Positions 207-64,000 of a DNA stretch of 64,000 bases are shown here, piece after piece; the stretch's first letter is position 1, and every line of letters begins with the position of its first letter. The notes under the pieces were generated by a model. It was not told the DNA's origin and ran no database searches. It saw only the letters and a program-made list of their open reading frames with translations. Source of the DNA: Bilabrum cf. latius (Eukaryota); assembly GCA_965178125.1 (NCBI GenBank), contig OZ237735.1, forward strand, positions 806,001 through 870,000. Direction: 5' to 3'. The position numbers and the translations under genes were made by a program.

Positions 207-3200
207 ATGGCGTCTGCCATCGCTGCATTTTTCGGCGGGGGAAAGAAGGGGGTCGGGTCTGACTCCAAGTACTTCTCTGCCAAGCGCAGTGAGTGCACTA
301 ATCCAGAACCTTGAACGTGCGTCGGAACGCGACCACAGCACATTCCTGTTCTATTGCTGGTCTCAATCTGAATCGCAGGCGATCGAGAAATCGAAGAGCT
401 CTCTAAGGAATTGATCTCTCCTAAGATCGATGAGATGAAGGAGGCGATCAAGAAGGTTATTGCGAATATCACTGTCGGCAAGGACATGTCGCCGTTGCTG
501 CCCCAGCTTGTGAACTGCTTGCGCACCGGTGAGATTTATTTCTGCAAAGCTACACTGTATGGCCCGTGCATGCTCTCATGAACCTGTCTGAAGTCACGTC
601 CTGCCTGACCGGATCGCAGACAATCTTGAGGCGAAAAAGCTGGTCTACCTGTACCTGATCAACTACGCAAAGACGAATCCGGAAATGACAATGATGGCAG
701 CAAACGCGTTCGTGAAGGACACGCGCAACCCGAATCCGATGCTTCGAGCTCTCGCTTTGCGAACTATGGGAGCCATTCGCGTCGACAAGATCACGGAACA
801 GCTGTGCACCCCACTTAAGCACGCGCTAACGAAAGAGACAGTGAGTCTAATTTCTAACTGCTGCGTGCCTTGTTGCCGGAATACTCGCGCGAAGCCATGC
901 TCTGTACCACCTCAAAATCTGGCTACTGGGTTGCCGCCGTTTCGCCGCAGGACCCGTACGTCCGCAAGACCGCGGCCATCTGCGTGGCGAAGCTCTTTGA
1001 TACCAACCCCGAGCTCGCGCATGACCAAGGTTTCATCATCGACCTGAACAACCTCATCTCGGACCCCAACCCGACCGTGGTGGCCAACGCCGTGGCTGCC
1101 CTGGCCGAGATCCAGGAAGGCTCCAAGGACGACGTGTTCGTGATCAACACTGCCGCGCTCACCAAGCTTACCACCGCTCTGAACGAATGCAACGAGTGGG
1201 GATAGGTCTTCATCCTGGATGCCCTGGCTAGGTACGAGCCGGCCAGCGAGCGCGAGGCCGAATCGATCATCGACAGAGTGCTCCCTCGGCTCAAGCACGC
1301 CAACGCCGCCGTTGTCCTCTCCGCTGTCAAGATCGTCCTGCTCATGCTGGACCGGATCACGTCCCCGGACACGGTGACGGGCTACCTTAAGAAACTCTCC
1401 CCTCCCCTGGTGACACTTGCCCAGGCTCCCCAGCACGAGATCCAGTACGTGGCTCTGCGGAACATCTCGCTCGTGGTGCAGAAGCGGCCAGGCCTCCTCG
1501 CCAGCAAGGTCAATGTGTTCTTCTGCAAGTACAACGACCCCATCTACGTGAAGCTCGAGAAGCTCGAGCTGCTCGTGCGGCTGGTCACCGACAAGACGAT
1601 CGACGCGGTGCTCCGCGAGCTCAGGCAGTATGCCCAGGAGGTCGACGTCGAGTACGTCCGCAGGGCCGTCCGAACCGTGGGTCGGTGCGCCATTAAGCTA
1701 GAGAAGCAGGCGGAGAAGTGCATCATGGTGATGCTGCAGCTGCTAAAGACGAAGGTATCCTACGTCGTGCAGGAAGCCGTGGTTGTCACAAAGGACATAT
1801 TCCGAAGGTATCCCAACCGGTACGAGAGCGTGATTGCAGTGATGTGCAAGGCACTCGACAATCTGGACGAGCCTGAGGCCAAGGCCTCCCTGGTGTGGAT
1901 CGTGGGTGAGTACGCGGACCGCGTGGTGAACGCCGCGCAGCTGCTGGAGCTCTTCCTGAAGGGTTTCAAGGACGAGACCGCGCAGGTGCAGCTGGCCCTG
2001 CTGACCAGCATCGTGAAGCTGTACCTCAAGAAGCCCAAGGACGCTCTAGGTGCCAACTTGGTCCGCGAGGTGCTGAAGCTGGCCACCGAGGAGAGCGACA
2101 ACCCCGACCTGCGAGACAGGGGGTACATCTACTGGAGGCTGCTGTCCACTGCACCAAAGGCAGCCAAGCTGGTCATCCTGGCGGAGAAGCCCGTCATCTC
2201 GGATGACACGAACTCGCTGCCGCCCTCTCAGCTGGATGCGTTGATCCTGCAGCTCTCCACACTGGCAGCCGTCTACCACAAGCCGCCGTCCGCCTTCGTG
2301 CGTAGATCTGCCAAGGTCGAGTTCGGAAACTCTGACGACGACTCGGAGGACGACGACTCGGAGGAGGAGGGAGACTCTGGAGACGAGGGCGAGGGTGCTG
2401 GGGAGGAGGAGTCGGACGACGACGATCTCTTGGGAGGCGGCGAGCCCCAGGCTGGGCCTGCCAGCGGTGCCGGCGCCGACACGGGCCCCGCCGCCGCCGC
2501 TGACCCCGGAGACGGGGCGGGCAGCGACGACGATGAGGCTGACCTCTTCGGGGCTGACCCGTCACCTGGAGGGGCGCCGAAGCTCCTGAACGAAGCCGAG
2601 CTGCAGAGCGTGGGCTCCAAGGGCGGGTTGGCAATCAAGGCCGCCCTAGTGAGCGTGAACGGTGTGCCCAACCTGAAGCTCGAAGTGCAGAATGACCTGC
2701 CCGCCGGCACCGCGGTGCAGCACCTGGATACTAGACTGAATGTGAACTCGTTTGGGCTGGTGCCATCCACGCTGCGGGCCACCTTCCCATACCCAGTGGG
2801 GGCGGGCAGCACCGGGTCCATCCTGATCCCGCTCGAGGTAGGTGGCGCCGGCACTCCCAAGGCCGGCGCGGCTGCTGCTCAGGCCGTCGTGCCCCGCTTG
2901 CAGTTGGCATTCCGAGAGCCCACGAGCAAGACGGTGGTGCAGGGCACTGTGGCGCTGTGGATAGAAGGGACGTTCCCTCAAGACGCGGCGTACCCGAAGC
3001 AGGAGTTCGGGCCCGCCTACAAGGCCTGCACCGGGGAGGGCCAGGAGGCCGTGTCGGTGGCCAGGGGCCTGCCCAACTCGGACGTGGATGCGATCAAAGC
3101 AGCCCTGGGCAGTGCTGGTCTCAGCTACGTGGGCAAGAGGGCCTTGCCGGGTGACAAGGTCGGCGTGTATTTTGCCTGCAAGGCGTACGGTGCCGTGAGC

Positions 3201-3365
3201 GCTAGCAGCGGGCTTGGCCCAGGCCAGGTGCCTGTGCTTGTGGAGACGCAGCTCAAGGCCGGCATGCCGGTGTGCAAGATCACGGCGCGGTCCCCCGAGG
3301 CTGGGTACGCCGATCTGGGCGCTGCAGCGGTGGAGAGACTCCTGAGGAGGATGCCCGAGGCTTGA
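207..3365 (+). CDS. AP2B1: AP-1/AP-2 adaptor complex beta subunit (beta-adaptin); exons 207-288, 379-528, 620-840, 951-3365; in-frame TAG at 1203-1205
   Basis: Spliced translation gives SDSKYF...[18 protein letters not shown]...[18 protein letters not shown]...[13 protein letters not shown]...[15 protein letters not shown]...NECNEWG*VFILD...[16 protein letters not shown], then an acidic hinge and appendage. Three GT..GCAG introns keep the phase. Ends TGA. Beta1 and beta2 are usually one gene outside vertebrates, so the symbol is approximate. Confidence 0.95.
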
Positions 3366-3522
3366 GGTGGTCAGAAGGCAATTAGTCCAGTGGGCCTGTC
3401 CGGCATGCATGAGCCATCGATCGAGCTTGCGTCGCGATGCCTGACTTTTCTATTCAATAGTCGTCTAAATTCATTCCATGCCATGGGAAACAGCCGCCCG
3501 CTTGCCACGAGGCAACGTAGGC

Positions 3523-4451
3523 TCACACGAGGTGGTACTCGGGCTTGCGGCCACGCTTGCGCTGCTTGCGGGAGGCTCCCCAGCCCCTGCGCTTGACGTT
3601 CGGGGCAACCTACTCGAAATCCCCCAGCTTGTCAGCCATCTCCTCCGCTCGCTCGCACACATCGTGCAGCATCTCCACGCAGTGCCTTCGGTTCAGCGTG
3701 ATCGTGTCATACCTCTCAGACTTGAACCGAATCAATCCCGTCTCCCAGTCGTAGAAAACGCCCAGAATCTCCTTCGCGTACTTTTTCCCAACTGTAGAGA
3801 GATTCAAATTGCCTATTGTTGTCTGCATCTTGACTCGTGCTCTCTTGATATCAGGCCGCCCCACAAGCCTCGAACCGAGCGTGAAGGCAAATTGTAGCTT
3901 GGCAGGATCAAATCTCAGAGTCCCTGCAGATGGGGGTGAGAGGTGTGCAACGGGGACATTTCAATTCGTAACGAAGAGAGAGGATGCGGTGGAGAGCATC
4001 AGTTTCGTCTCGGCTCACTGAGGACGCGGTCGCTGCTGGCGTCGTACATTGGACCGGTCTTTTGCTCGATGTCAAACTCCCTTTGTACATCCAATAGTGC
4101 TGTCTTGTCCATGTAGATTGGGATTGTGGCGGGAGCAGCACCTTCGCTATCATCGCCTAGCGCGCTGTATCCCTCCAAGTCGATTCCTCGTGGTACCTAG
4201 CTCCTCCTGACCATTTGCTCTGGTCTCTTGGCACTCTCCGCGTACATATTTCCCAATTCAGTGCCAACCGCGGTGCCATCCATAGATCGTAACTCATCTG
4301 TAGTAGGCATGCTGGACCGTACTTTGGTTGTCACGCTTGTCGTTGAAGACAACACCCTCCCACTAGCCGGCAGTGCTACCGAACGAGAAAAAGATACAAC
4401 TTCACCGATTGCACGGAATGCACATGAACTTCTCCCCAGAAACTTTCGCAT
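3523..4451 (-). CDS. Probable mitochondrial small-subunit ribosomal protein mS35 (MRP-S28/Rsm24 domain); intron 3924-4018; in-frame TAG at 4197-4199 and 3610-3612
   Basis: Arg/Ser-rich transit-peptide-like N-terminus MRKFLGRSSCAFRAIG. C-terminal RVKMQTTIGNLNLS...EILGVFYDWETGLIRFKSERYDTITLNRRHC resembles the mS35 domain. The GTGAGC..CTGCAG intron restores the frame. Ends TGA. Confidence 0.65.
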
Positions 4452-10941: not shown

Positions 10942-13900
10942 TCATACTTGGATGCGCCGAGACAAATACCTAATGCACAAGTCGAAACCACGCTCGCTCC
11001 GTTCATGTTCAGCAGCTAGAGCTGGGGGGATGTTTGTTCTGGCTGGTGGCCTTGGGCCCAACTACGCTTCACCAGCAGTTAGTCGCCCTGTTGTCCAAGC
11101 CTGCTTCAACTTCGACGGCACACCTGACGATGAATCACCTACCTTTGTCTCCATCATTGTGACCTCTGCCTACGAACGAAGATCGTCCAAATCTTCAGAG
11201 GCACCGGCCTGGACGACTGCAAAGCACTCCGCCGCTACGCACACGTGGAACACGCTTGCCCTGGAGAGCAAGTCCCCGAGCGCGGCACCATCCTTGTCCG
11301 TATATAGTACACGAGCAGCGTGTCGACACAGAGATGGCAGGACCTGCACAAGAAGATCAGCGTAGCCAAACAGAACCTGCCGGGTTGGGGGGGACGCTGT
11401 GCCCCTGGGGTCCAGCACGCTGGCACTCTCAACCTGCGAGCATGCAAGGGCAAGCTGCACCCCGCGCAGCGCTGCAACCGCGCAGCATCGAGCAGATACA
11501 ATGAATGCAGCGCTTTGAGGTGAAGTGGCATGTACCCTGCACAGGCCTCGCCACGCCGCCGGGCAACGCATCCTTGCCTACCCACCGTCAGTACCACAGT
11601 CCGATTGCTCAGGATCTGGCAAAAGCTATTGAGCCATTCCTAGAGTCGACTTACATATCCTTAGAATGATAGCTGCCGTCCCACGGAGCATCTGTATGGC
11701 TGACTGGATTTGCTGGCGGTGTGAACCGACGGCTAATCCTGCAGCGACAACGCCACGAGCATGAGCCTTTGGATCTCCCCTGAGCGCCGCATGGAACTGA
11801 CACAGGCACAGGTAGGTCAAATCGATGAGCTACCGGCAGGTTTTCGTTGCATGTAGTAACGTGAGACCAGAATGCGACCACGATGCTGGGGCTTCATTCG
11901 CATCAAGGAAAGACTATGCCTGTCTGAGTCGCAGCGACAGAACGCGGCCAACAGCAGGGGGGGGTTGCCCGGCTTCCTGATCCCCCCGAGAGATATCAAA
12001 CACCAACTCAACTAAACTACGCGATGCTTTCTCTGGCCGACTCGAAGTCTTGGGCTGCAGCCACTGTGGCAATGGCAGTGTGACGGTCTTACTCTGACTG
12101 CTGCTCTTGGATGGCATGACAAATGATTTCGGCACAACGCTTGGAAGATGCCGTAGATGCGTTGCCTTCTAGCTTGCAGCGCCATGAATAGACGGAAGGG
12201 CATGCTCTAGGCTGCTTCCGCCTGCAGCAACACTCGATGCACTGGCCGCTTCTGGAGCGGTAGGGACAACAGAGTCAGGCACCTTGGTGGATGAGCGACC
12301 CGAAAGCTTCATTTCCGTACCTGCAGCACCAGCAGCATCGGAGCGGACTTCGCGCTTGGTACTGCTACTTTTGCCGGCCATGTACGCTTCATCGTCATCC
12401 TAGAGTGAACCAACTGAGTCTGCATCGCCCACGTCGGTTGCATGCGCTGCATGTGACTACGAATGATCGATCTCGGCGCGAGCCGGCGAACCACCAATGC
12501 CAGAAGCTGGGAGTCTGGACGGCTTCGGCACTTCGCGTATTGGAAGTACCGCAAGCCGTGCCGGCAAATTTAACTGCAAAGAGTTCAGACACATTCGAAG
12601 CGTTTCTAGCATTTGAGCTGCTTTCGAAGTTGACTTAGAGGTGGCCCTTCCTAGCACATCCGATATGGGCAAGACTGCCTCCATAGGTACACAAGTCTCA
12701 TGTTCCATGAAATGGTCAACGCCATCGACAGGAAGCAAGTTTTGCTGCCATTCAGCAATTTTTGCAGGCTCACTTGCATTATCAGAGCCCGAATCATCAT
12801 GTTCCTGCGTGTTCGAGGCCTGTGCATCGGCTTGGGTTGCAGCATGCTGGTCTCCCATAAATTCGTGTACTCCAGGCAACACAGCTACCTAGCGTTCGAC
12901 GGCACCAAGGATCTATCGAACCGCTTTCCGAAGTGACGATGGTAGGCCGCGGGTCTCAAACCCGCCACTACGGGATGCTGCACAAGTCAGCACAGACGAT
13001 GCTAGTTCTTCAGCTCTAGGCTACTCTTTGCTTTGCGCAGGGTCAGCTGCTCGCTCAATGATGGCTTTCAAGATTACGCTACCGGTCCTGAGCACCAGAT
13101 TCGGGAGTTGGATCGAAAGCGTAGCCTCGTTGTATTCGTCTTCACCATCATCGCTGGCATGCACCCCACTGGAACTCTCCCCAGGGACTTGCAGCAGAGA
13201 GGCCAATGATGCTTGCGGTATGGACACAGCTGTAGTAGTGGTTTCGCTGTCTTGCCAAGCAGTGCTATCAGCGCCTTCTACAAGCACGTCTATCCCTGAT
13301 GCAGCAGCGTGAGCCATCTGCTCTACACTCACTGCAAGATCGCGGAGGTCTTGTCCTGTCTCAAGGTTGTTGCAGGAGGGCTCTTGGACGTCTTGTCCCC
13401 CCGAGCTCGTGCCAAGGGTCGCCGTCCAAGAAAATCGGACATCGGAAGAACCATGCTGAAGGTTCCGACCAACCACAGTCTTGACTCGCATGCGCAGTAG
13501 CAGCAGCCTACGCAAGGTTCGTGAGATGCAATGGCACGCAGAGGCTAGCAATCGGATAAGGCGACGAGCAAGCTCTGGCTGACGTTGCAGTCGAATCAAT
13601 ACAGCACCACCGGATGATACGTGTGATGTACCAGCGCCAGAAAGCACTGCCTTTCGAGCATGCTACAGATACGCAGTAGCCAAGGCGCTGCGAGACGCCA
13701 GTTCGTGGCAGGCAACATCGAGTTGCAGCGCCCACTCCAAGTCTAGCCGTTGTTGCACGAGCTGTCTTCTTCCATCGGATATGGCTTGAAACACTCTAGA
13801 GGCACTGGTCTTGTGCTCTCTATCGGCTGCGTCAAGGTCAGGACCATCTATCGGCTTCAGGTGCTCACTCACAGTAGATGCATGCATGTTCCCAGCAAGT

Positions 13901-46000: not shown

Positions 46001-47049
46001 AATGCTAATATTTGAAACGATCCAGCTTCTACTGCGCTGGGTGCCGCAGTCTCCTGTGCCCCGACAAGGAGAACTTGCACTATCCCTGTGTCGGTACCGG
46101 AGCCTGCCCGTATCGAGGCCTGCTGCAGAGCGGCTGCCACGGGGCGGTCTTCCAAGCTCCGTGGGTGCACCTGACTAGACAACCTCCAGTCGCACGGACC
46201 AAAGCATGACACAGATCTGCCGAATCGCCTGATGGGATACGCTGTTGTGCCAAAGTGACCCTACACCTAAGTCTTGCCTAATCGAACGTGGCTGACCACC
46301 TCGTCCGTGTCCGGATCCAGGCGCAGCACGAAGACAGCGCCAAACTAAGCAGGGCCATCATCCGACGCATCGAATGCAGCGCCAACTGCTAGCATTGGGC
46401 TGCTACTGCCTGGGTTGTACCCCAGACTGGCCATGCTGGCGCCAAAAAACCCCCCTGTCCGGATGAATGGGGACAACGAGCCTCCCGACATACTACTAAT
46501 CTTTATCTCCGACGACAAAGTGAAATTGCTAGTCACACGCAAAATATGAACTTGACCTGTGTTTGGGCCTCCAGCATTGCCCCGTGGACATCCTACTGCA
46601 AGGCGGCGGAGATGGGGCTGTCTGACAGCATCAGCGTCCGAGGCGAGCCGCAGGCCGGACTTGTTGCGAGGTTCCGGCCAACTACTCGGCTATACTGCCC
46701 ACGAGGTCAGGCTGCGTCCGCATTCAAAGCCTGTCATAGAGTTGCCGCGACTAAAATCTACGCCTGCGAGAACACTCCGGCGGTGTGCCGACAGCACGGC
46801 ACCACCAAAGCCTGAGCTAACAAACCTAACGCCCCCAGCTGAACTGGATGGCCCTGGGGCACCGATTGCTAGGTCTAGATACGAGTCTCCATTGATATCG
46901 CCGAGGGAAGCGACATCAAAGCCAAACATTTCTCCGGCTGTTGGACTAGTATCGCTTACCACGTTTCCAGAGCCGATCGAAACAGCATCAGCCGCATCCG
47001 TTGTATAAAGGAGCGAGATCACAATGAAGGCTAATACTATTTGTAACAT
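25003..47049 (-). CDS. Giant (~7,350 aa) surface protein: signal peptide, dozens of FG-GAP/integrin-alpha propeller repeats, Cys-rich segment, multi-pass TM C-terminus; apparently one exon with many in-frame TAG
   Basis: More than 35 minus-strand ORFs from 46690..47088 down to 25003..25320 share one frame. All ORF ends and gaps I checked (not every gap) have TAG only. N-terminus MLQIVLAFIVISLLYTTDA. Repeats such as FGFDVASLGDINGDSYLDLAIGAPG, FGSSLTALGDIDDDRVPDVAVGSP and FGQAIAVHDLDGDGILDAIVGAPG. Cys-rich CGPGYKQGSPACSLCEDGRY..CELCP, then several hydrophobic helices. Ends TGA at 25003-25005. Confidence 0.85.
31450..46950 (-). repeat. Protein-level tandem FG-GAP (integrin alpha beta-propeller) repeat array within the giant gene
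   Basis: Recurring FG-x-S/A-V...D-x-D/N-G-D-G-x-x-D/E-L-x-V-G-A-P...G-A-V-x-V/I units. Diverged, with no obvious nucleotide-level tandem identity. Confidence 0.85.
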
Positions 47050-47381
47050 GCCAGGGGATAACACGCGTCGCACGGCACCGAAGTTCACGTTGTCTGTATC
47101 AGATCGCCATGAATATGCGGTGCTCTAGAACGCAACGTTCTGACTGAACTTCAATACAAAGTTTGGACAATGATATATTGGAATTCAGGTTCTGGGTGAT
47201 TCTTGCTGAACTATGATGATTGGTTCTGTACTTCGCTGTGGTGCGAGAAAATTCCGGTTTGTCTTCATCCTCTCCAACTTGGCTTGCCAAGAGTTGCAGC
47301 CGCTGGTGCTCTTAGCATCGAAGCAGCTCGCAAAGACAAGCAATTTTCAAGGTCCATACCACTATTGTAGACCCAGGTTCC

Positions 47382-50562: not shown

Positions 50563-50710
50563 ATCGAACCCTGCTGAAGAAGCAACTGGAGGTGGCTCGG
50601 ACCGCGAGATTGGAGCACCAAAACTGAAACTCTCCTGAATAAACGAATTGGAACGCAACAATAGCCGGCCTGCATTTTTTCGTTTTCGCTCACTGCGGCG
50701 GCGGAGAGCC

Positions 50711-52576
50711 ATGCGTCGAGCGTTGCTCATGGTGATTTCTTGTTTTGTTTTGATACTCAGCTGCCACGTGCCTGATAGGGCCGCTCAGTTTCCGACAGTA
50801 GCAACTGTACAGTTCTCACCTGCACGGTGCAACTGCACAGCTGCAGAAACCATTTCTCGGAACCTGCTCGAAATCACCGGTCTCATTTGGCAAAACCTTG
50901 TTAGTCCTTCCGTTCACGTGATTGTGCTACCAGAATACGGCCTGATAGGAGGGGACGCAATTGCAAATCGGTCGGATGCAGAGAGGTTTTCAATGTAGCT
51001 TCCGGCTGTTGGGCAGCACGTACCGCAACATGAGTAGTCTTGTAGCGAGACAAAGATTGGTGCTCTTTGCAACTTAGGACGTCTGGCCGCGAAATATGAT
51101 AGTGTCGTGGTCGTTCAGCTTGTCGAACGAGTGGCCTAGTCGAACGGCACTTCTCGCATTTACAGCACATAGATGGCAGTAAGCGCATCGGGACAGGTTC
51201 TTGCCAAGTACAGAAAGTATCATCTGTATGGAGCTGAATCGTTTTATTTTGACGAGCCCGATCCAGAAGCAACTGAGTTGCGAATTCCGGTTGGCAAGGC
51301 GTCAGAGGCATTCGCTGGTTTGCAGATTTGCTTTGACCTCATGTTTCCTCGCCCGCGTGACTGGTACTTTGATAAACTCAGCATGGACTACGCGCTGACT
51401 AGTTCAGAACCACAACGGGTCGAACCGGGCCAGGTTAGCACGCTCTTGTTCAGCTCGTGGTGGGTCAACAGGCCTCCCCTGCTCACCGCCGTGCAGGTGC
51501 AGAGCGGCGCGGCGCGAGGGCTTGGTGTAGCATTAATCGCTGCGAATACGGGTGCAGGCCCATAGTATCAGGGCAGCGGAATCTATGCCCCTTCTGGTCC
51601 TGGTCTATGCACACCAAGGGCGGCAGCTGCGCTCCCCGGATCCGGATACGCCGAACGTTCGGTGAGTCGGTTCGATGCAGGTGGGCCGGCCTCGTTCGTC
51701 CTGTCTACGGAGGTACCGCTGGCTGCGGGAGCAAGCATCCCAGATTCCGGCTCGCTTGGCCAACATAGCGGCCGGGCAGGCTCCGAGCTGGGCTGCAGCT
51801 CGCCGGCGGAGGCATGCTTATGCTTGGCTGGCTCCGTCCCGCGCACCCCGCTGGCACGCTCGACAGCTTGTGGCCCCCACCTTCGAGTTAACCTCAGCTC
51901 GGTGTTTCAGTCTATGCAAGGGGAAGCTGCTCTTTGGCACAGGGCCGAAGGGGGGATGGATAGGTGCAGCAGTATCGAGGTGGCTGGGCTGGGCTCATCT
52001 GCGCCTTCATTGCAAAGCCTACCAGATCGCGCGGCCATGTCTTGCAACGTGTCTGGGATCATTTAGGCCAATGTGTCTTGGAATGCAAGCGCTCTTGTTG
52101 CGTTCAGGCTCGACGGGTACTACAACAGCTTCTTCAATGCTAGCCTGTGCGGTATCGTGGCGTGCTCCCCATCCTCGGCACCGTCACCTGGTGCCGAGGC
52201 TTCTTTTGAGGATGATGGAGATATTGGTTGGGTGACCGAGTGCCTGGATCCGCTGGCGGATCCAGCAGGAGCAGGGTCGTTCGACTGGTACCTGGGTGCC
52301 CCCCTTGAGGATGTCCGAGTGCAGTCGGTGCTGCCGAGGGGACAGGTGCCCTGGCCCCAGGGGGCATGGAGCGGGGGCAGTGCGATGCTCGACGATGATG
52401 TGCGGTGGGACGTGTCCAAGCACTATAATAGCGACGCGCTGAAGTTCTCGGAGATGCATGCTGCCCCAAATGTAAATGTGAGTGATTCCAACGCGACTAT
52501 GGCGAGCGGGGCAGGGGTGGGCCGACAGGTGCAGGCAGTCGTGATGCTTGGTATGGAAAGCGCGCTTGATTTGTGA
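50711..52576 (+). CDS. Secreted carbon-nitrogen hydrolase, vanin/biotinidase (pantetheinase)-like; 6 in-frame TAG
   Basis: Signal peptide MRRALLMVISCFVLILSC. Catalytic triad motifs VLPEYGL (Glu), YRKYHLY (Lys) and ICFDLMF (Cys), plus AAN...GSGIY. ORFs 50648, 51173, 51662 and 52073 share one frame. Ends TGA. Confidence 0.85.
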
Positions 52577-52600
52577 TTGAAATTTCCACTTGAACATGCT

Positions 52601-53095
52601 TTAGTCTCTCTCTACTTCAAATTCTAGGCCTGTCTGATCCGAAATCTCCCTCTCGAGTAGGTCGAGCAGGTCTCCCTGCTGCCGCGTGCCCAACCAGCAT
52701 CCGTCCTGGAAATTAAATCTCATGGGACCACTCAGGGGGGAAGACCACCAAATCTGCTTATTTGGGGTTTGTTTATTTAGTACCCATGTTCCAACATCGC
52801 CTAATTTCAGGGTCAGGACGCCTTGCGCGTTCGAAACGTCCATATCTCCGCGTTCTGCCACGTTCCACTGGTCGTTCAGGTCCTCCAGTGCTACTTCGAT
52901 ATCTTCCAATGTTCTATTGGCGTGCTCGTGGTAGTCTGCTTCACTGATACTCGAGACTGTGCAGTCGCCATGTGGCTCGTGCGAACACGTGCGAATTTGC
53001 ACGGGCACTACTCCGCACAATACGCGGGGCATGCTAACCGTTCTTGACGAAGCAGCAGAGCAACGACGAGAAAAAATAAAAATTCTTCGAATCAT
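52601..53095 (-). CDS. FXN: Frataxin (mitochondrial Fe-S cluster assembly)
   Basis: Transit-like N-terminus MIRRIFIFSRR. GVLTLKLGDVGTWVLNKQTPNKQIWWSSPLSGPMRF. The only gene here ending in TAA. Confidence 0.95.
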   Translation of the reverse strand: MIRRIFIFSRRCSAASSRTVSMPRVLCGVVPVQIRTCSHEPHGDCTVSSISEADYHEHANRTLEDIEVALEDLNDQWNVAERGDMDVSNAQGVLTLKLGDVGTWVLNKQTPNKQIWWSSPLSGPMRFNFQDGCWLGTRQQGDLLDLLEREISDQTGLEFEVERD

Positions 53096-53232
53096 GCTTA
53101 GTTGTGCCCAGTCAAACGATCTGAGAAGCAAAATGTTTCTCTGCCGCACACTAATTCGGAGTCAAATATGAAGGTTCCCTATTTCTTCTCTTTTTCCGAG
53201 GTGCGAGATAATCTAATCAGCCGTTTGCAAAC

Positions 53233-55100
53233 ATGCATCAAACAACGGTCAATGTTATGTTACTGTCTGCCTTCATATTCTTGCTTGCGTTCAAGGTGGG
53301 CCTATTCGGTATGCAGTCGTTCCAATGTGGATCTTGCAACGCACACTCTTTCGAGACCAATATCCTGCCCATCGTTCGCAGCCATCTGAGCCACACCTAA
53401 CAAGATACCTGCGCGAAGTGAAAGGTTTTAGTGATGATACTATCAACAATGATATATACGTTGTTTGGACGTATGCATATTTGCCCTTTTTGTTGCTGTG
53501 CGCGCCAATTGCATCCGTAATCGGGGATGTTAATACGATCGCGCTTGGTGCCACGTGCCGGCTGGTAACTCGAGCGCTGCTACTATACGGAACTGAAACA
53601 TGGCACATGATCGTGATGGAGATATTTTACAGTGGGGGTTCGGCAGCTGAAACGGTATTCTTTGCCTATGTCTACACTGTGGTACCATTGCCTTGGCACG
53701 GTACTGCAACTGCTGCAACACAATCAGCCTTTCTCTGTTCGCAACTGCTCAGTGGTATTCTTGGTGACATAATGATACACTGGATGGACGCATCTCTGCA
53801 GAGTACCCTCTGGGTCAGCGCAGTCAGCGTGGCTCTTGGGTGCGCCTCCCTTGCCATCTTGCCCACCCCGCCAGAGACGAGACAGCAGGCAAAAGGCAAG
53901 CTAGCACCAATACATTCTGCTGCAAAAAGTACAGGCACGCCTTCGACTAGTCAGGGCATTGACAATGCTCCCTAGCTCGAGATGGGTATGCCACCGCCAG
54001 GTACTCCGGTGGATCATCCGGGTGCAAGCCTGGAGGAAACAAGCCCGTCGAAACCACGGGCAGCATCTGGCCATGACCAGACCAGTTCCCGTGGATCTGA
54101 CGACTGCCCCACTAACAAAGACACGACGGAGATACCGTAGTCCGACAAGCTATCGTCAGTTGACAGGGTATCGCCTGTTGGCCCCTTCGATGGGCTAGCC
54201 CGCGGGTGGCAGCTGCTGCTGGCAGCCTGGACCCAGCCTTCCTACCGGTCGCAAGCAATGCTGTGGGTAGCTGGGGCTGCAGCTTGGTAGTTTGTCTTCG
54301 GTTGGGAGGCGTCGCTGTACGACGCGGCTTTCCCCAACGCTAAGCAGGACTGGAACGGATCTGTGCTGTCCGCCATGTTGGTGTTCGGTGCGGGGGGTGC
54401 AGCGGTTGTGAGCTATCCAGCCGTGCAGGAGCACCTGTCAGGGACTCGGTCAAGCGGGTTTATTCTGCCAGCACTGCTTGCAGTAGTATGCTCGGTAGTT
54501 TTAGCTGCAGTTTACTGGATGAACAACGGTATAGCGATGCTCGGGGTGTTGGTTGTGGTGTTCTTTGCATGGTAGCTGTGGAATGCTGGATTCTACGTGA
54601 TTACTGCCCGGGTTGTTGAGGACCAAGGGTAGCAACCTGCAAGGAAAACTGAGTTGGAACCGTCAAATAACTCGCTTGATTCGCAAACACAGGCCGACGC
54701 TCGGCTGGAACAGCCGGTTGCAGACGGAGGGGCTGCGGCACACTCCCACGGGGTCATGGTCCGCGACACGGAGTCGCCAGTGCATGCCCCGCTTCTTGCT
54801 GGGGACGGGCATCCCACAGGAGTGCCACCTGGCGCGCTATCGCAAAGCAGCAGGGAATGCGATTCGGAGAGTGCGACCGCACTGACTGGCATATCCCAGG
54901 TGTTTGTCGTGAACCAGGCACTGGGGCTCATGGTGTAGGTCATCCTGCAATCTGTGTTGCTGACTTGGGTTGGGCTAGGGTTGCAGCCACTATACGGTGT
55001 ATGTGCGCTAGTGATGCTTGTGGGTGTCGTCCTGGGAGCTGCAGATTTAGGCAGAAGCCAGGCTTGCCCGAGAGGCACCCGTGAGCGGCTCGCGGCGTGA
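53233..55100 (+). CDS. SLC19 / reduced folate carrier family (folate/thiamine transporter-like); exons 53233-53295, 53382-55100; several in-frame TAG
   Basis: Spliced LLSAFIFLLAFK-PSEPHLTRYL, VVWTYAYL, MEIFYSGGSAAETVFFAYVY, WNGSV and many TM helices. Intron GTGGGC..TCGCAG. Ends TGA. Confidence 0.85.
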
Positions 55101-55252: not shown

Positions 55253-58200
55253 TCAACTTGTCCGGCTTTTCTTAGCCTCAGGCTCGTCATCGTCGCCTCC
55301 TGAGCTGGCGGCAGAAGACTCGGCTGTGCTGCTGCTGCTGCCTTCGCCATCTGGGTTAATGACTGCGTCAGGCGAGTCCGTGCCTTTGCTTTCCGCCCTC
55401 TCACCCTCGTCATCCCTCCCGCGCTTCTCCCCGATCGCCCCGTTGCCTGCAGGGCCTGTGCTGTGGGCCGTCGCATCCTGCGGCTCCTCCCCCTCTGCCA
55501 TCCAAGCTCCCTCGGGTACCGCGTCCAGCTCCAATGGTAGGCCTAGCGGTCGATTGGGGGCACCTGCAGAACTCTAGGCCGCTGTCTCCAGCCCTGCCAA
55601 GCAAAGCTCTACCTGTTCTGTAACGTCCTCGCCCACTGGCTTCATGTCGAGGATCGAGACCAGCCGCAGCAGGTACGGGCACGAGCACAGCACGTCAGAC
55701 CTTACTTGCTGTGGCACCGCCTCGGCCACTTCGGCGGGAACATGGGCCGGCGCTGCAACCAGTGACTTGGTTCGAACGAACTCCGCAGCTATTTTCTTCC
55801 GCTCCTGGTCGTACTCCAGCTCCTGGGCAGAGGCGGATCCGGCAGCTGCCTCGCCAGCGATGGAAGCGACTGGGGCCACCTGGGAACTCGGCCGGATGCC
55901 CGCGCCAAGCAGAGCCGCGGGACCTTGCTCGGCAAGCTCGCTCACAATCGGCGCATCGCCAGCAGACACGCCTGCGTGGCACACAGCAGCCATGGGCAGC
56001 TCGTTCAAGATGACCGGATTCAGACCGGCGATCGCGTCAGCTTCTGCTGCTCGCAGCGAGAGAGGCACAGTCGAGCTGCCGATGCCAGAGTAGTCCCTGC
56101 TTCCATCCGCTGCCTCCACGCTCCAGGCGAGAGGCCTTGGTGCCGCTGCCGAGGAGGCGGATTGACCGGATCCCGATACGTCACCGATGCTTGGCAGAGT
56201 GCAGGCCATGGACTCTTCGTCAGCCGTTGTGCTTGGAAGCATTCCGGCGTGCTGGTGCCGATGAAGGTGCTGGAGCAAAGTCGGGACGCCACCCACTCGC
56301 TGCGGGGCGCTCTCGTGGTCGGACACGAGAGCTCCAAGGGCTGCATCTGCTGCGCCGGCCGTCTTGCCTGCTGCCTCCTTTGGGTCGGTCAGAATGGGTA
56401 GCATCCCCGGAGCACCCTGGGTCCTCTCCGTCTCAGCTTGCTGCACGAGCTCGTCCAGGGAGGTAGCGGTGCCGGCGAATGGTGGCATCGAGTACGAACC
56501 AGGCATGGCAAGGGCTCGCTTCCACTCGACCTGCTCTGCAGTATCCAGCGAGCCCCCGCCCTGGGACCCCCGCAGCTCTAGGTCCATCCACCGCTCCCAC
56601 AGAGATGGAGCGCACTGCTGATCGACCTGGGCCAGGGCAGCCTGCAGAATCGCCCGGGCGTTCCTCGCGTCACCTTTCTCGATCAGAATGTCCACGGCCG
56701 CGCACGCCAGGTTTGGGTCCTTGGGGTGGTACCTGCGCCCCAGGTCCAGCACCTGCAGCGCCATGTCCTTGTCTCCGTTGGATCGAGTCTCCACCATGGC
56801 GGCCGTGAGGTACACGCCGGGTCCGACGTTTGTCCCTCGCCGCGCATCCGCGAACACACGCTTGGCGGCGTCTGCGCCTTGGGTGCGGCGCGCAAGCCGG
56901 ATCCAGTGGCACCTGAGCAAATCCGAGGCGGGAGCCTCCGGCTCCCGCAGTGGCACCCACGGCCCTTGACCTGCGCTCGCTGCCCCCTGCTTGACCCGCC
57001 ACTCGACAAGGGCGCGAGCCTTGTCGTCGGCCTTGCAGCGCTCCAACGCGTCCGACGCAGTCATCACCAGCAAGTCGCTGTCTCGCCAGCACGCCCGAGC
57101 ACCTTCCTCCAGATATGCGGCCCACCCCGGGGTCGTCTGACCCGCGGCCAGCGCAGCGTCTCCGGAGGACGCGCGCTGCCAGGCCGCCCTTGCCGCCCAC
57201 ACCTCGGGACACCTCCGCAGAGACCCGAGAGCGCGCCAGAAGGACACGAGCACCGCTTTGTTCCGCCTGCTCTCTGATTGCGTGGACTACGATAGCTTCA
57301 GGATCGCGGCGCCCCAGCGCGAGCTCTGCTGCCGCTGCCGCGCAGAAGCCGCAGCCCATCGGGAGGCCGCCTGCACTGCAGCAAGCTCCAATTCCGCTGG
57401 CACGGGGACCGCCTGGCCGTGTCCTGCGGCGGCTCCGTGCCGCCCCTTGAGCTCTTCTACCCAGCGCGCGGTGGATGCTCCGCTGAACGGATCCGCAGAC
57501 TCGTCCTCTGCTGCGCCTTGTGCTGCTGCACCCTTGGCAGCCTATGGTGGGCCTGGGGCTACAGTGGCACCCGGCTGTGCCGCGCACACATGGGCCCACC
57601 AATCCCTCGCCCTCTGCCTGCAAACGGCAATGGCTCGCGGTGGGGTGACGGGCGGGACCGGCATGGCGTCCTCGTCGAGCTGCTCCCACGCGGGGAGCAC
57701 CTGCTTGCTCGCTTCCATCGCCTGTTCCACGAGCGGCCTCGCTTCCTCAGCCACCTTGGCTCCTTGCTGGCGAGCTGCCTCTTCATCAGTTCCTTCCGAA
57801 CGAGCCTATTCCACGGCAGCCTCCACCTCGAACTACGAGTACTCCGTCCAAACATCGGCCAGGCTCGTCGAAGGGCTCGATAGAGCACGCCGATACACCT
57901 TCCGGAGCGCGGTGGCTCCCTGCACAATCGCACTGCCACCCTAAGCAACCGCCTGCTTGTATCCCTATCTGTGATGCTTGATCAACGCTTGCCACAGCTT
58001 GTCGATGCCAGGCTGCGTGTCGATTGCTCGAGCTGACAGAGCAAAGTTCAGAGCGTCTCCGACAGCTTTTCGCGCGGCGGCAAGCTTCTGATTCGCCTAA
58101 AGAAGCTAACTCTGAGCACCAGCTGACTTTCCAGAAACGGCCTGCTTCGCCTTCCCGACTGCTTCGGCGGCGGGAACTACTTTGGTTGCGTGCACGAAGT

Positions 58201-58631
58201 CTACGTAAAACTCAAATAGGCCTGGGTGACTAACGTTGACCCCAGGCGCTGTTAAGGCTTTCCGAAGCACCGAGTTAGCCGCAACGGTTCGATTGTGCTT
58301 CAATTCGTGGCGCGCCCAGCGCAACCAAATAGATGCCTGCAGTGAGAAGGCAAGCCGAGCAGTTGATCTAAATCTCCACAGTCAATCCCATACGGACGCA
58401 AGTTCCACGGTCAAAATTCGGCTCGCTACTCACCTACGACGGAAACAGCTTTGCGCATGCATCGAATACGTGGGATGCGCTACTGTGCGATGACTCCTCT
58501 GCGAGACGGAGCAGCTGCATCCACGCCCCAGTGTCGTAGCAGTGAATGCCTACATGCGTCCATAATCTGGTGGCAGCTGCCGGTGGCGCGGAATCCCGAG
58601 CCTTTCTCTGCACGACAGGTGGCATCGACAT
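55253..58631 (-). CDS. CSTF3: HAT-repeat protein, cleavage stimulation factor 77 kDa / Rna14-like; exons 58434-58631, 55253-58336; several in-frame TAG
   Basis: YDTGAWMQLL...LFPS*ASIWLRWARHE, LRKVYRRALSSP...VWTEYS*FE, WIRLARRTQGADAAKRVFADAR, VYLTAAMVE, DARNARAILQAAL, LWERWMDLE. All one frame after a GTGAGT..TGCAG intron. Ends TGA. Confidence 0.8.
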
Positions 58632-58753
58632 GACTTTGCTAGTATAAAGCACACGAAACTGGCTAAAACCTCGAAAGGTTGCATTGGATCGTTGTTGCGT
58701 GTACCTTGAAGAGCGAAAACGACATTCGAGGACACAACAAACAAGGCGAGAAC

Positions 58754-61700
58754 ATGGGGAAGAAACGTCGAAGAGGTGCGTCTCGGTCGAGCGGAGGTGG
58801 CAGTGGGGGTGTTTATGGTGGGCATGGCGCTGCTGCTGTTGCACGATCCCCAGTTCCAGCGGAGGACAGCGCTTTGTTGCAGCACCCGGAGCCAGACATT
58901 TCTAGACTTGGCATTCGCCACTACAAACTGCCACGAAGTAATGTTGGGGGCCTTCAAAATATCGGAAATACGTGTTTTTTCAATAGCACGCTGCAGTGTC
59001 TCGCTACTTGTGATGACCTGGCCAGATACCTTCTGGCCGAGAGCTGGGCGCACGTACCTACGGCTCCCTTCAGAGGCTGCAGCAGCTCTCGAGACAGTCT
59101 TATGATAGCACCTTGCCTACACAGACTTCGAACGCGAAAAGGCGGCCTTGGAGATGGGGATGCGGACGACAAACTGCCGTCCGCCCGGGATGCGCTGCAA
59201 TTGGCGAGCCTGCCTGAATTGCCGGCTCCTGAATTGATATCTTGGCCCCCGCACGGCGAAGGCCGAATCATGACTGCATTACGTGCATGCGTGCGTGAGA
59301 TGAGGCGCGGGCAGTCGTCCAAGCAGCTGCGCGCTATCCCTGCGAAGCACCGCATTGCTCCTCATCACAGCGATGCCGCCGCCGCTGCAGCCGACCCGTC
59401 CGGGGAAGCTGGTGCCGAGGAGCCCGCCAACGACAGCCGCTCAACCGGAAGGCGTGGCAAGTCAGGTCCTCTGTCTGGCGCCACGGTGCGGCCCACAGGC
59501 CTGCTCACAGCGATTGGGTAGGACTACCCCATGTTCCGGGGCAGGGCGCAGCAGGACGCGCACGAGCTGCTCATGTGCCTGCTCAACGGGGTCGAGGAGG
59601 AAGAGTCCAGGCGGCTCAAGACCAGGGCAGACCGCAGGCTGCGGCTCGTGGCAGCGGGCGGCGCCCCGGACCGCGGGGTGCTGGACGAGGGAGCCGCTGC
59701 CTGCCCCGCGCCTGCCTCCGCCCTCGACGTTCTGCGGCAGCACGCCGCTGTGCTCAGGGAACAAGGGGGCGCCGTTGCTGAGACCGCCTCGTGCCTCGAG
59801 AAGGAAGACGATGGCAGCGAGTTCCACGAAAGGGTGGCGCTGACCCTGGGGGGCGGGCCTCGCGCTCCGTGCAAGACGCCCCTGGGGCTGCGCGGCTTTG
59901 CGACCAAGACGTGCCTATTAGGGGCTGCCAGAAGCAGCAGCAGCAGAAGCAGCAGCAGCTCTGGCGAATCGAAGGAAGACTGCCCGATCCAAGTCCCCGG
60001 CAAGCTGGCCCGGGCACTCATGTCGTGCGAGGCCCCGCGCACCCCGCGGCCATGCACGGTGGTGGACGACCTGTTCCGGGGGCACTACGCCCAGCTGTCG
60101 AGGTGCGAGCACTGCGGGAATCTGCACGTTACAGTGCAGGACTGGCTGGCACTGGAGGTGCCCCTGGCACCGCCCCGGCCCCGCAGGCGTCCTGCAGCTT
60201 CCGGCTAGCGGCAAGGTGCCGGGTCTGGATCTGGGTCCGGGTCTGGGTCCGCAGGTAGCGGCGGTTTCGGGATCCACCTTTCAAAGCGAGACAAGGCGAG
60301 GCTTAGGCGCGAGAACGATCGAAGGAAAAAGGCGGGGAGGCCGATACTGGGGCCCGACTTCAAGGAGTTGCCGCCGCACAAGCAGCCGAAGGGCACTAGG
60401 CAGGGAGGCTCGGGCGGGAGCTCGGGAGGCATGTCAAGGCAGGAGCTGGAGATGTCCTCCTTGCTGGGGTTGTCGGGGCCGCAGATGAAGTTTCTGCGGA
60501 AAGGACAAGGTTCTGGTGGTACTGGTGGGGGCAGCAAGGATGTGTCACCGGAGGCCCGCAGGGCCAGGGCTGCTGCAGCGGTGCGGACCATCAAGCCGCA
60601 GCCCACCGAGTCCTGGCTGCACTTTGCCAAGTCCAAGGACAAGTGGAGCTGGCTCAAGGAGCACGCAGATACCGAGCTACTGGACCGCTACAACATCAAT
60701 CAGCCGTGGAAGCGACTGAAAAAGTCGCATGGCGGGCACAAGCTTGACCCGATCGTACAAGAGGCGTGGCAACATCTACTGCGAGAGGCCGGCATGCTCG
60801 ATGATGACTCCTCGGGATCTGGCGACCGGAGCACCGGCGGCACAAGCAAGGATGCTGATGGCAGCAACCGGGCATCGAGCACATCAGACGAAAACGAGGC
60901 GCTTGAAACGCGAGCGATCCAGGAGGCACGAGCAAAGGCCAGTGCCGAGAAGCAGGAGAAGGCCAAGCAGGATGAGGAGGCTGCCGCAGCTCGACAAGCT
61001 GCCGTAGGCCTGCTTGCACGCGCTCGAAGTGAGTCTGCAAGGCGTTGGGCATCGTGGGACCGCGGCCAGGAGAGGTGCAAGTAGGTGGCGCAGGAATGTC
61101 TCGAAGCAGCGATGGACGCTGCCTCTGCAGCAGCTGCAACTGGCAGTGCAGCCACGCCCGCCGCAGATCGAGCCACTGATTTGGGGGAAGCAGCTGCAGA
61201 AACTAGCGCGGAATCGACGGACGGGGTCGAAGATCTGCCGGGCGAGCTCGCTCGCCGCGCCCTTTGCGCCGAGTACCTTGGGCATTTGCAGACGGCCGCT
61301 GCCGCCAGGCATGCTCTTGAGATGAGGCGCCTCGAGGGCTGCCTCCCTGAGCTGCCTGGGATTCAGGTGCCCTTGAAATCGCCATCGGGGCAGAACGCCG
61401 GCACCTCGGCTGGCAAAGGGAGGTTCTCACTGGCCCAGGGCCTGGACCTCGCGTGCACTGTGGAGCGACTCAGAGTGTCCGATGGAAACGGGTACGAGTG
61501 TCCGCGCTGCTCCCGAGCCGGGAATGGGAGGGAGCGTGAGGCATCGGACAGCGGGACAGAGGGCGAGTCGAGCGACGAGGACAATGCCGACGCTGGCGCG
61601 CAGGGGAACAAGGCCGGTGGGTCGTCGCCCGTGCGCGCGGCGGTGGTGCACCGCAACGGGTCGCGGCGGTTTGTGCTGCTGTCGCTGCCTCCAGTGCTGA

Positions 61701-62074
61701 TCATGCACGCCCAGCGGTTTCGATTGCAGGCCATGGGCGCGATGGCGCGGTACGTGAAGGACGACAAGAGCGTCTCGTTTCCCGCGAGGATCGACATGCG
61801 CCCATGGCTCCTGTCCTCTGGCTCCTCCGCGGATGCGGGCGGAGGGGCTGGGATCCCCCGCTAGCTACCCACACAGTATGACCTGTTCGGTGTGGTGTGC
61901 CATCATGGATCCACGCTGTCTGGCGGGCACTACACCGCCTTTGTGAAGCAGGCCTCGGGCTGGAGGCACGTGTCCGATGCATCGGTCAGCGTGGCAACCG
62001 AGGCTCAAGTTTTGGCCTCACAGGCCTATCTGCTCTTCTACAGACGCGTGGACCCAAAATCGCCAAAAGATTGA
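58754..62074 (+). CDS. Ubiquitin-specific protease (peptidase C19, USP16/45-like) with large insertions; 4 in-frame TAG
   Basis: Cys box GLQNIGNTCFFNSTLQCL, QQDAHELL, Zn-finger CEHC...CPRC, LPPVLIMHAQRF, His box HHGSTLSGGHYTAFVK, SDASV, AYLLFY. TAGs at 59519, 60206, 61082 and 61862. Ends TGA. Confidence 0.92.
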
Positions 62075-62226
62075 TGGCGGCAGGGCGTGGAGAGGTCTGG
62101 TATCGCATCAATCGACAGGCAGCTCTTAGTAAAGCGGTTTCATATTTGGGCTCGGCTGCTGGTGTTCCTTCTTCCGGTTTGAGTTGATGCACGCAAATGG
62201 TATCACACGACGATTTGACTGCGACT

Positions 62227-64000
62227 ATGGATGATAGCACCGACAGAAGCGCCAAAATAACAAAGTTCTTCAACAACTTGACTGCTTCAGTTGACGCTCA
62301 GGTCGTGCAAACGCTGGAGAGAGGCAACGAACTGCAGGCAACACGGCAGATTGATTAGGGCACGGTAGTATTCACTGAAGGACCAATTGCTGCGCACCAA
62401 CACCAGGCTAATTCGTGGTCTGTGTAGTGCTGTAAACTGTGCTTGGGCCCACTGGGATCCGCAGCATCGCAGGTGCGTCAGGCTTGCAGTGTAACGGGCC
62501 CGGCAGACTTAATCACGTCGCTTGGGGCCATAGTTGATAAAGATGCAGCTGCTACTGGCACCTCGGATAGCGAGGAAGAAGACGAAGTATGTGGGTTCTG
62601 CATTAGCGCGTAGGATGCAGAGCTTGCAGTCGAAGAGGCACAATCGGCGGTACGCTAGGCTGCAACAGAAGCTGAACATGATGCGACCGGGATTCCTGCA
62701 GCTGCAAGTGGGAGCTCCGAATCTCCACCAGTTGCATTCGCTCCAATCGATCTGAAAGTAGCTGTTAGTGCGTGCACTTGGCCCTGCGTGACGTCCGACT
62801 CGTCTGGTTACTGGCAATTCTGCAGCCAGAGCTGTCGCGATGAAGCCATGCGTTCGATGCTGTTCGTTTTGGACTACGATTTTATGTAGGACGTGGCAGC
62901 GGGATCAGCCGCGCTAATTCTCGATTCAAGCAGTCACAGTGTGGTTTGCGGTGTTGGTGCAGGCCGGATGGGTGGGCACGAGGCAAGCACAGTAGCAGCA
63001 GCAGCAGCGGGGGGTGCCGGCGAGAGCACCGATGAACTAGTAGTCCGCGCAGACCCAGAATCTGGAAGCTCACCTTCGGTAGCAACAAGCGCAAGCGACC
63101 TCACTAAATTCGATGGATCTATGGGATCGGCTGCGCTAAGTGGGGCCCGGCTTGTCGTCGCACGGGCCGCAGTCGGGGAGGGCAGCGAGGCGGTTGCGGA
63201 GGCAGCCGATGAGCTGGATGACATGCAGCGGGAGGTGATGGAATCCGCAGGGATGGCAGCTAGATGCTACTCACACATGTTAGCACTTTTGTGCGACTCG
63301 GTTGATGCCGCCGCCGCCGCAGCAGCAGCAGCAGCAGATCTGGTCTCACCAGCGAAAGACATTTCGATCAAGAGCCAGGGCGAGCGACCCGACAGCACCG
63401 CCAGCATCGCCGAATCATCGGGTTGCGCCGGAAAATCAGGAGCAGGAGCAGCCAGCGCGCTCGCAATTGTATCAAAATGCCTACTAGAAGCAGCTGCGCC
63501 GCTGCAAGACCATCTCCACGGTACCGCTATCGAGACTGTCATGAGCTGGCAGTGGCAGACCGAGGACGCCGATGCCGCACCAGCGGCCTCGAAAAGCGCA
63601 GCCGTGCGTGATGGATTGCATGAAGAATCACCGGATACGATGCAGCTATGCGATATCCTGTCTCGAGCGTTCTTGCCGCTTTTCTTGGCCGCATTTAGGG
63701 TGCTGCCACTATCGTCAGGAGCAGATGTGCAAACGGCCACGAAGCAGCTAGTCGAGGAGCGTTTCTTTTCTCCGCCCGCGGTGTCTCGGCTGCTCGGGGT
63801 GCTTGAACTTAACGGGATCGAGGTGGCAATCGATACTCCAGGAGCACTCGTCGGCAGAATGGTTCTGACCGGGGCGGCACGAGGGGGGAAATCTTGCCGA
63901 GTTCTGCATGAAGCGCTCGAGAGGACGGATGGGGCGCGCCAGGTGCTTGGAGCAAGCGCTAGCCCCGAAGGCGAAGCGCCGAGCGGGCATTCAGGCATGG
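62227..64000 (+). CDS. SET-MYND lysine methyltransferase, SMYD5/ATXR2-like (3'-partial); missing from the ORF track
   Basis: Manual translation: MDDSTD...ERGNELQATRQID*GTVVFTEGPIAAHQHQANSWSV*CCKLCLGPLGS...FCSQSCRDEA...RLLGVLELNGIEV. Fits split-SET N-part, MYND cysteines and SET core. The frame appears open to the window end apart from TAGs. Confidence 0.7.

Follow-up and report, generated by a model that had tools for sequence, protein, structure and literature searches.

In the fornicate Iotanema spirale (Fornicata), the accessible text of Panek et al. 2017 (PMC5304391) describes a nuclear code in which UAG is read as glutamine and UAA and UGA are stops, with UAA as the primary terminator. 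The same UAG-only change to glutamine is reported for Protocruzia tuzeti and two phyllopharyngean ciliate lineages in the accessible text of McGowan et al. 2024 (PMC11687900). UAG-only reassignments to other amino acids, namely to leucine in the rhizarian exLh and in ciliates and to serine in Scotinosphaera, are named in the available parts of both sources (PMC11687900, PMC5304391). The ciliate Oligohymenophorea sp. PL0344 reads UAG as glutamate and UAA as lysine (PMC11687900, same parts), and the code in which UAA and UAG together mean glutamine (UAR=Gln, NCBI table 6) is listed in the accessible text of PMC5304391 for many ciliates, hexamitin diplomonads, some green algae, oxymonads and an aphelid. 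Here we analysed a stretch of 64 kb of nuclear DNA (contig OZ237735.1, positions 806,001 to 870,000, deposited as Bilabrum cf. latius), called the window below and numbered from its first base, and we show that its genes carry TAG, and neither TAA nor TGA, within their reading frames. From frame statistics and from the residues that homologues carry at these sites, TAG is very probably a sense codon for glutamine in this genome, with TAA and TGA as stops.

This reassignment had been proposed for the window in an original prediction made from the DNA letters, which described UAG-only codes as known from very few lineages and gave Iotanema as the example. The rarity stands; in the text available of PMC11687900, however, Iotanema is not the sole organism with UAG=Gln, since Protocruzia tuzeti and the two phyllopharyngean lineages share it.

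Results

TAG within coding frames

Thirteen reading frames were modelled first and two further genes (MRP-S28-like and frataxin) were added, by which the predicted set of 15 genes, 13 of them with in-frame TAG, was recovered. The 13 frames comprise 19,504 in-frame codons with 157 TAG, no TAA and no TGA, and the MRP-S28-like frame contributes one more TAG, which brings the count to 158 in-frame TAG in 13 of the 15 genes; the genes for elongation factor 2 (EF2) and frataxin have none. In the off-frames of the same 13 genes, all three triplets are frequent (323 TGA, 247 TAG and 78 TAA in the +1 frame; 448 TGA, 165 TAG and 78 TAA in the +2 frame), so that totals of 156 TAA and 771 TGA off-frame stand against zero in frame. 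The predictions that TAA does not occur in frame and that it remains a stop agree with these counts and with its position at the end of the frataxin gene, and in-frame TAA, far from being as common as TAG, is missing from the window's 19,504 codons. The same applies to TGA as a sense codon of the Condylostoma or Blastocrithidia type, for which we found no in-frame instance in these codons against the 771 off-frame.

Under the standard code the longest frame of the window has 914 codons. When TAG is read as sense, the longest frames extend to 7,394, 2,061, 1,851, 1,619, 1,136 and 1,043 codons; reading TAA as sense brings no change, and the top frame still has 914 codons. The GC content at third codon positions is alike over the 30 codons before TAG (0.553) and after it (0.543), and homology runs through TAG in beta-adaptin, the AP complex mu subunit (AP-mu), RRP8, CstF77, the ubiquitin-specific protease (USP), the SLC19 carrier and the CN_hydrolase gene. 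The predicted sense reading of TAG is thus supported both by frame statistics and by homology.

Two other origins of these TAG triplets were considered and ruled out. Decaying pseudogenes do not account for frames of 19,504 codons from which TAA and TGA, but not TAG, are wholly excluded, and a position inside introns is incompatible with the colinear alignment of relatives, in which a Gln codon stands where the window has TAG.

TAG makes up about 0.8% of codons and is rarest in the most conserved genes. EF2 uses 25 CAG as its glutamine codons with no CAA and no TAG, whereas the long, less conserved genes use all three; TAG behaves like a disfavoured synonymous Gln codon. Such usage also bears on whether the genome might follow the ordinary UAR=Gln code with TAA merely too rare to be met in a GC-rich genome. 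A-ending codons are indeed disfavoured here (236 CAA and 455 CAG in the window frames); at this CAA:CAG ratio, however, about 80 in-frame TAA would be expected beside the 157 TAG and not one is observed, although the off-frames hold 156 of them, and frataxin ends in TAA right past its domain. We therefore regard the UAR=Gln code as extremely improbable.

Residues facing TAG

In solved AP-1 and AP-2 beta chains, the TAG of beta-adaptin at 1203 lies opposite the Q of EWGQ, the family motif to which the original prediction had pointed. At weakly conserved sites the solved structures present scattered residues (K, L and V for CstF77; D, N, D and K for pantetheinase; F/N and Q for SLC19), and these were not used as a test.

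The meaning of TAG was tested mainly on CstF77, for which both close protein relatives (P0121-P0136) and orthologous DNA (contigs L001 and L002) are at hand. When the CstF77 frame was scanned against all 1.84 billion representatives, 295 proteins reached E 0.001 or better, the top matches being fragments 53-96% identical to the window. When a 521-residue part of the giant FG-GAP repeat protein was used in a search of shorter proteins, P0271 and P0277 were found with 81% identity over parts; the other 118 of the 120 listed matches are FG-GAP proteins at most 36% identical, of which the few that are named are bacterial.

A metagenome scan yielded L001 (4,832 nt) and L002 (2,301 nt) out of 69 pattern matches. 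L001 carries USP and CstF77 in divergent orientation as in window 55253-62074, and a few hundred bases lie between its two genes. Because the two contigs are 99.7% identical over their 1,144-nt overlap, we treat them as one species in two assemblies. No poly(A) tail was found at the 3′ end of L002. Their frames contain 3, 5 and 4 TAG in 717, 764 and 719 codons (12 TAG in all, with one site counted twice through the contig overlap), and no TAA or TGA in the 2,200 codons together; CstF77 of this species ends in TGA.

Ten window TAG sites could be aligned to L001/L002, and seven of them face a Gln codon (CAA four times, CAG three times), the remaining three facing TCC, GAG and GCA. The Gln codons are CAA, CAG, CAA, CAG, CAG and CAA at CstF77 sites 92, 95, 139, 147, 183 and 192, respectively, and CAA at USP site 285. 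Of the other three CstF77 sites, 280 (TCC) falls where the alignment has gaps and 365 (GAG) where conservation is poor; the codon opposite site 936 is GCA. Conversely, the relative's own TAG sites (n=11) correspond in the window to CAG, CAG, CAA, TCG, GCA, AAC, GAG, GCG, TCA, GAC and ACC. At none of these 21 sites do both species have TAG, and TAG and CAR (CAA or CAG) turn over like synonymous codons.

Protein relatives add further sites. P0121, which is 96% identical to the window protein, has Q at CstF77 sites 365 and 936, the latter being Q in P0124 as well, and shows an indel at site 280; P0277 has Q at site 4730 and Y at site 4829 of the giant protein. Over all 28 comparisons, in which two solved-structure sites are included, the residue facing TAG is Q in 15, S, E and A in three each, and Y, N, D and T in one each, and the summed BLOSUM62 score is 76 for Q, 41 for E and 15 for S. 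Where DNA is at hand, each Gln facing TAG (10/10) is encoded by CAA or CAG. In a stricter subset, made up of those L001/L002 pairs whose flanks are free of gaps and identical to at least 50%, together with the beta-adaptin, AP-mu, P0121/P0124 and P0277 sites, Q accounts for 12 of 17. Against a Gln background of 3.6%, the binomial probability of 14 or more in 28 is about 1e-13, a value that overstates independence. Distant homologues did not suffice to assign TAG, and the matter was decided by the close relatives; the original suggestion of glutamine as its probable meaning is thereby supported beyond one motif.

The protein fragments of the relatives begin at internal Met/GTG, and their breaks coincide with TAG or Gln in the window. 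P0277 stops just before the giant-protein TAG site 4862 and P0271 just before the TAG-TAG at 5121-5122; P0036, an EF2 fragment 92% identical to the window, stops before the Q of VVIKQEEGE (after VVIK), and P0122 stops before a window Gln. This pattern is what would be produced by a standard-code gene caller on a genome with sense TAG. Because the fragments look standard-code called, the Q residues that they do contain are real CAA/CAG codons. The trait is found in relatives with protein identities of about 96%, 81% and 63%, and the code change thus predates their divergence.

Weighing the assignment

Several observations weigh against glutamine as the meaning of TAG and against TAA and TGA as the stops, and they are gathered in this section with the explanations that they favour. 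The first group concerns the amino acid. The single TAG of AP-mu lies opposite a conserved Glu in solved AP-2 mu. Distant CstF77 homologues, of which 145 were listed in addition to the close relatives and 123 were used after 22 shorter than 450 residues had been dropped, slightly favour Lys with 5.6 bits over Gln with 3.8, an underpowered result obtained from only three variable sites among the nine TAG, those with at least 50% occupancy. In an internal repeat tally of the giant FG-GAP protein, 9 of the 75 TAG fall into repeat columns, all of them variable. Just 3 of the relative's 11 TAG sites face a window Gln, and the 28 comparisons are partly dependent, two sites having been counted with more than one relative. 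TAG could accordingly be a sense codon for another amino acid, with Glu, which faces TAG in 3 of the 28 comparisons, as the runner-up and Lys, Leu and Ser as known or conceivable meanings. Against this stand the 15 of 28 Gln over the 3.6% background and the BLOSUM62 sum of 76 for Q vs 41 for E, whereas Lys and Leu face TAG in none of the 28 and Ser in 3 of them; both clear sites are Q in P0121 at 96% identity, and the DNA of the relative presents CAA (4) and CAG (3) to window TAG codons. We consider a meaning other than glutamine very improbable.

A second group concerns whether the TAG triplets of the DNA exist as such in translated mRNA. If the standard code were kept and UAG were converted to CAG by U-to-C editing, Gln would likewise be expected at every TAG site, and editing fits the DNA data in this respect. 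General U-to-C editing would, however, rescue TAA (to CAA) as well, yet TAA occurs in none of the 19,504 in-frame codons, and we rate editing as unlikely because TAG alone, not TAA, is tolerated in frame. U-to-C editing on such a scale is not known for nuclear transcripts. Alternatively, the TAG triplets could be assembly or sequencing errors; against this, independent assemblies show TAG sites again, the same TAG being common to L001 and L002 although these come from two metagenomes, and sequencing runs of three studies contain the window's words (0.44-0.99 of sampled words), none of these runs being recorded as RNA. Editing and error taken together are exceedingly unlikely as an explanation of the data.

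A third group concerns the ends of genes. Among the 14 complete genes, 13 end in TGA and one, frataxin, in TAA; as had been predicted, none ends in TAG. The use of TAA as a terminator is thus seen in one gene only, 7 residues past the Pfam domain of frataxin. In the MRP-S28-like gene, TAG stands 3 residues past the Pfam domain and is followed by a basic tail of 28 residues and then TGA, and this TAG could be either stop or sense. Such a TAG just past a domain, 28 codons ahead of TGA, is what would be seen if TAG were ambiguous, i.e. mostly Gln and in some genes a context-dependent terminator, and frames extended through TAG cannot by themselves reveal TAG stops. The C-termini that can be checked (AP-mu, RRP8, EF2, CstF77 and frataxin) nevertheless all end in TGA or TAA. 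AP-mu is aligned to residue 445 of 446 of the solved AP-2 mu chain and then has TGA; the C-terminal LAPCIYKRR of RRP8, which had been noted to lie behind three TAG, does so and aligns with the C-terminal CLYKRR of chain 2zfu_A ahead of TGA; EF2 ends in DKL as in its homologues, followed by TGA; and the C-terminus of CstF77 is common to the relative's fragment P0136. Conserved sequence continues past the last TAG in RRP8, CstF77 and the SLC19 carrier. Because their ends match those of homologues and conserved sequence follows the last TAG, TAG is not the terminator of the AP-mu, RRP8, EF2 and CstF77 genes. Occasional termination at TAG, which would refine glutamine coding and not exclude it, appears unlikely.

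Finally, the decoding components of a UAG=Gln code were not met with in the window. An Rfam scan of the window gave no match, ARAGORN found no tRNA gene in the window, L001 or L002, and the eRF1 gene is absent from the 64 kb. With these points taken into account, we retain the reading of TAG as a codon for glutamine.

Genes of the window

The window has a GC content of about 57%, and its 15 genes lie on both strands with very short spacers (Table 1). Pfam families name MRP-S28, frataxin and ten more genes, and three genes are without a family.

Table 1. Genes of the window with positions, in-frame TAG, terminators and family evidence
Gene	Position	Strand	In-frame TAG and gene end	Family evidence
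beta-adaptin (AP-1/2 beta)	207..3365	+	ATG at 207; last exon in frame 858-3365; one TAG (1203-1205); TGA end	Pfam Adaptin_N, E 2.5e-103
MRP-S28-like small gene	3523..3960	-	one TAG (3612-3610); TGA end	Pfam MRP-S28, E 1.1e-08, frame residues 33-114
EGF/NHL/LCCL repeat membrane protein, 2,038 codons	4673..10789	+	11 TAG; TGA end	Pfam EGF_TEN, NHL, LCCL
1,799-codon gene	10942..16341	-	17 TAG; TGA end	no Pfam family
1,618-codon low-complexity gene	16495..21351	-	19 TAG; TGA end	no Pfam family
AP complex mu subunit (AP-mu)	21587..22837	-	one TAG (22408-22406); TGA end	Pfam Adap_comp_sub, E 1.4e-73
RRP8-type rRNA methyltransferase	23209..24621	-	3 TAG (first bases 24090, 23586, 23469); CIYKRR, then TGA	Pfam Methyltransf_8, E 1.3e-69
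giant FG-GAP repeat protein, 7,393-codon frame	25003..47184	-	75 TAG, 0 TAA, 0 TGA; TGA end	
elongation factor 2 (EF2)	47382..50069	-	no TAG; TGA after YYDKL	Pfam and homologues
pantetheinase/biotinidase-like CN_hydrolase	50639..52576	+	6 TAG, 4 in hydrolase domain; TGA end	Pfam CN_hydrolase, E 2e-12; pantetheinase chains, E about 5e-07
frataxin	52601..53161	-	no TAG; TAA end (52603-52601)	Pfam Frataxin_Cyay, E 1.4e-31, model positions 2-105 of 107
SLC19-type folate/thiamine carrier	53217..55100	+	6 TAG; TGA end	Pfam Folate_carrier, E 2.5e-35; SLC19 chains
CstF77/Suf (mRNA 3′-end processing)	55253..58381	-	9 TAG; TGA end	Pfam Suf, E 2.4e-40
ubiquitin-specific protease (USP)	58667..62074	+	4 TAG between Cys and His boxes; TGA end	Pfam UCH, E 1.4e-45, residues 95-1125
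gene of unknown family, runs off the window	62188..63999	+	5 TAG	

The 5′ part of the beta-adaptin gene has three short introns near window 207-900 with exon pieces in three frames, the borders of which are approximate. The main frame of AP-mu is without about 28 N-terminal residues, and a 5′ exon should lie upstream, at window 22838-23208. The remainder of each of these two genes is intron-free.

Two genes bear on earlier claims about TAG between catalytic residues. In the USP frame, the four TAG between the Cys and His boxes were located at residues 285, 514, 806 and 1066, as claimed. In the nitrilase gene, the four TAG at residues 120, 133, 167 and 178 fall inside the CN_hydrolase Pfam domain, and, from our reading of the translation, they would lie between the catalytic Glu and Lys. 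A homologue search with the CN_hydrolase protein gave 0 matches. This gene (+, TGA at 52574-52576) and the frataxin gene (-, TAA at 52603-52601) are convergent, with 24 bases between their stops (window 52577-52600). The USP and CstF77 genes are divergent in the window, likewise in L001.

In the protein encoded by the giant frame, dozens of FG-GAP repeats precede a C-terminal part that is Cys-rich and, with several hydrophobic segments, membrane-spanning. The first TAG of this frame (codon 20) stands ahead of any plausible start Met and perhaps is not translated. In the EGF/NHL/LCCL gene, a TAA immediately follows the terminal TGA. The terminal TGA of the 1,618-codon gene (window 16341-16497, -) is in frame with the next gene of 1,799 codons, the first ATG of which is 51 codons downstream; this shared frame is probably due to chance (1 in 3).

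Host placement

Among the named EF2 matches, the best is a row with the label of a diatom transcriptome (66%); Bicosoecida sp. CB-2014 (64%) and Cafeteria (63%) come next, followed by ochrophytes, Aplanochytrium and oomycetes at 58-60%. A quick IQ-TREE analysis of 28 EF2 rows places the window next to P0036 (support 100) and this pair with Cafeteria, P0020 and P0007 (96). The group that contains Cafeteria falls within a clade of 14 rows together with Bicosoecida sp. CB-2014 (100), apart from the ochrophyte, oomycete, Aplanochytrium, opisthokont and plant rows. This tree is of a single gene with few taxa, a quick search and the window on a long branch (0.57), and we read the host as a stramenopile near the bicosoecids without claiming a firm placement; the stramenopile affinity had been part of the original prediction.

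The diatom-labelled transcriptome EF2 (P0004) groups with the bicosoecid-type rows and not with the ochrophyte rows, which suggests that this data set holds a heterotrophic flagellate contaminant.

Discussion

As seen in the window, the host genome is intron-poor and GC-rich and uses UGA as its main terminator and UAA as a rare terminator (one gene) and never as sense. With UAG, cytoplasmic translation would insert glutamine. We propose, by analogy with described codes, that UAG is read by a tRNA-Gln with anticodon CUA, which would not read UAA, and that eRF1 has a weakened recognition of UAG; the tRNA probably would stem from a duplicate of tRNA-Gln(CUG) in which one change altered the anticodon. 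This anticodon is suggested because none other than CUA reads UAG without also reading UAA. The same argument from a CUA tRNA and eRF1 is made for the UAG-only codes of Iotanema and the rhizarian exLh in the accessible text of PMC5304391, according to which the T32 position of eRF1 is changed in Iotanema.

Searches of the full-text literature, which did not extend to supplements or to papers behind subscriptions, brought up no stramenopile with a changed nuclear code, and the available parts of PMC12560768, PMC13768787, PMC11412368, PMC10120064, PMC12817076 and PMC12153298 contain none. Within this range of literature, the predicted absence of a described case from stramenopiles is upheld. We lean towards the view that the window represents the first non-canonical nuclear code in stramenopiles, i.e. 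that, in a clade of several species related to the bicosoecids, UAG came to mean glutamine independently while UAA was kept as a stop.

If this is true, the compositional setting is opposite to that of AT-rich ciliates and metamonads and would offer a natural test for the codon capture of a rarely used stop. Decoupled reassignments of UAG and UAA are rare and show that eRF1 and tRNAs are able to tell both codons apart, and a further independent case would bring a new major eukaryotic group onto the short list. With at least three related species that carry the trait and genomic DNA available, there would be close relatives for dating the change. For practical purposes, standard-code gene callers fragment the genes of this organism, as the public fragments P0121-P0136, P0271 and P0277 show, and because such callers break genes, annotation and phylogenomics of the clade need translation table 15.

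Comparison with known systems

We class the code of the window with the NCBI table 15 pattern, a known variant to which it adds a new lineage. The following comparisons draw on the accessible text of the sources cited at the outset. With Iotanema the window shares the change of UAG alone to glutamine and a UAA that does not occur within coding sequence but serves as a stop; a tRNA-Gln(CUA) together with an altered eRF1 would be the expected mechanism in both, in the window's host by analogy. The two lineages are unrelated, Iotanema being a metamonad and the window's host a stramenopile, and they differ in termination, with UAA as the primary terminator in Iotanema and 13 TGA and one TAA among the 14 gene ends of the window. 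They differ in evidence as well, which is a transcriptome in Iotanema and here genomic DNA of several related species.

Protocruzia and the phyllopharyngean ciliates have the same table 15 type pattern, partly known from environmental genomes; ciliates change their codes often, whereas no stramenopile nuclear code change was found in the full-text literature searched. With the table 6 code the window has in common that a stop codon has come to mean glutamine, probably starting from tRNA-Gln, but TAA is not sense in the window (0/19,504). In exLh, Scotinosphaera and PL0344 the meanings of UAG and UAA are decoupled as they are here, and the amino acids differ, window TAG being faced by Leu in 0, Ser in 3, Glu in 3 and Gln in 15 of the 28 comparisons. 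What distinguishes the window from these systems is a GC-rich genome combined with near-exclusive termination by TGA.

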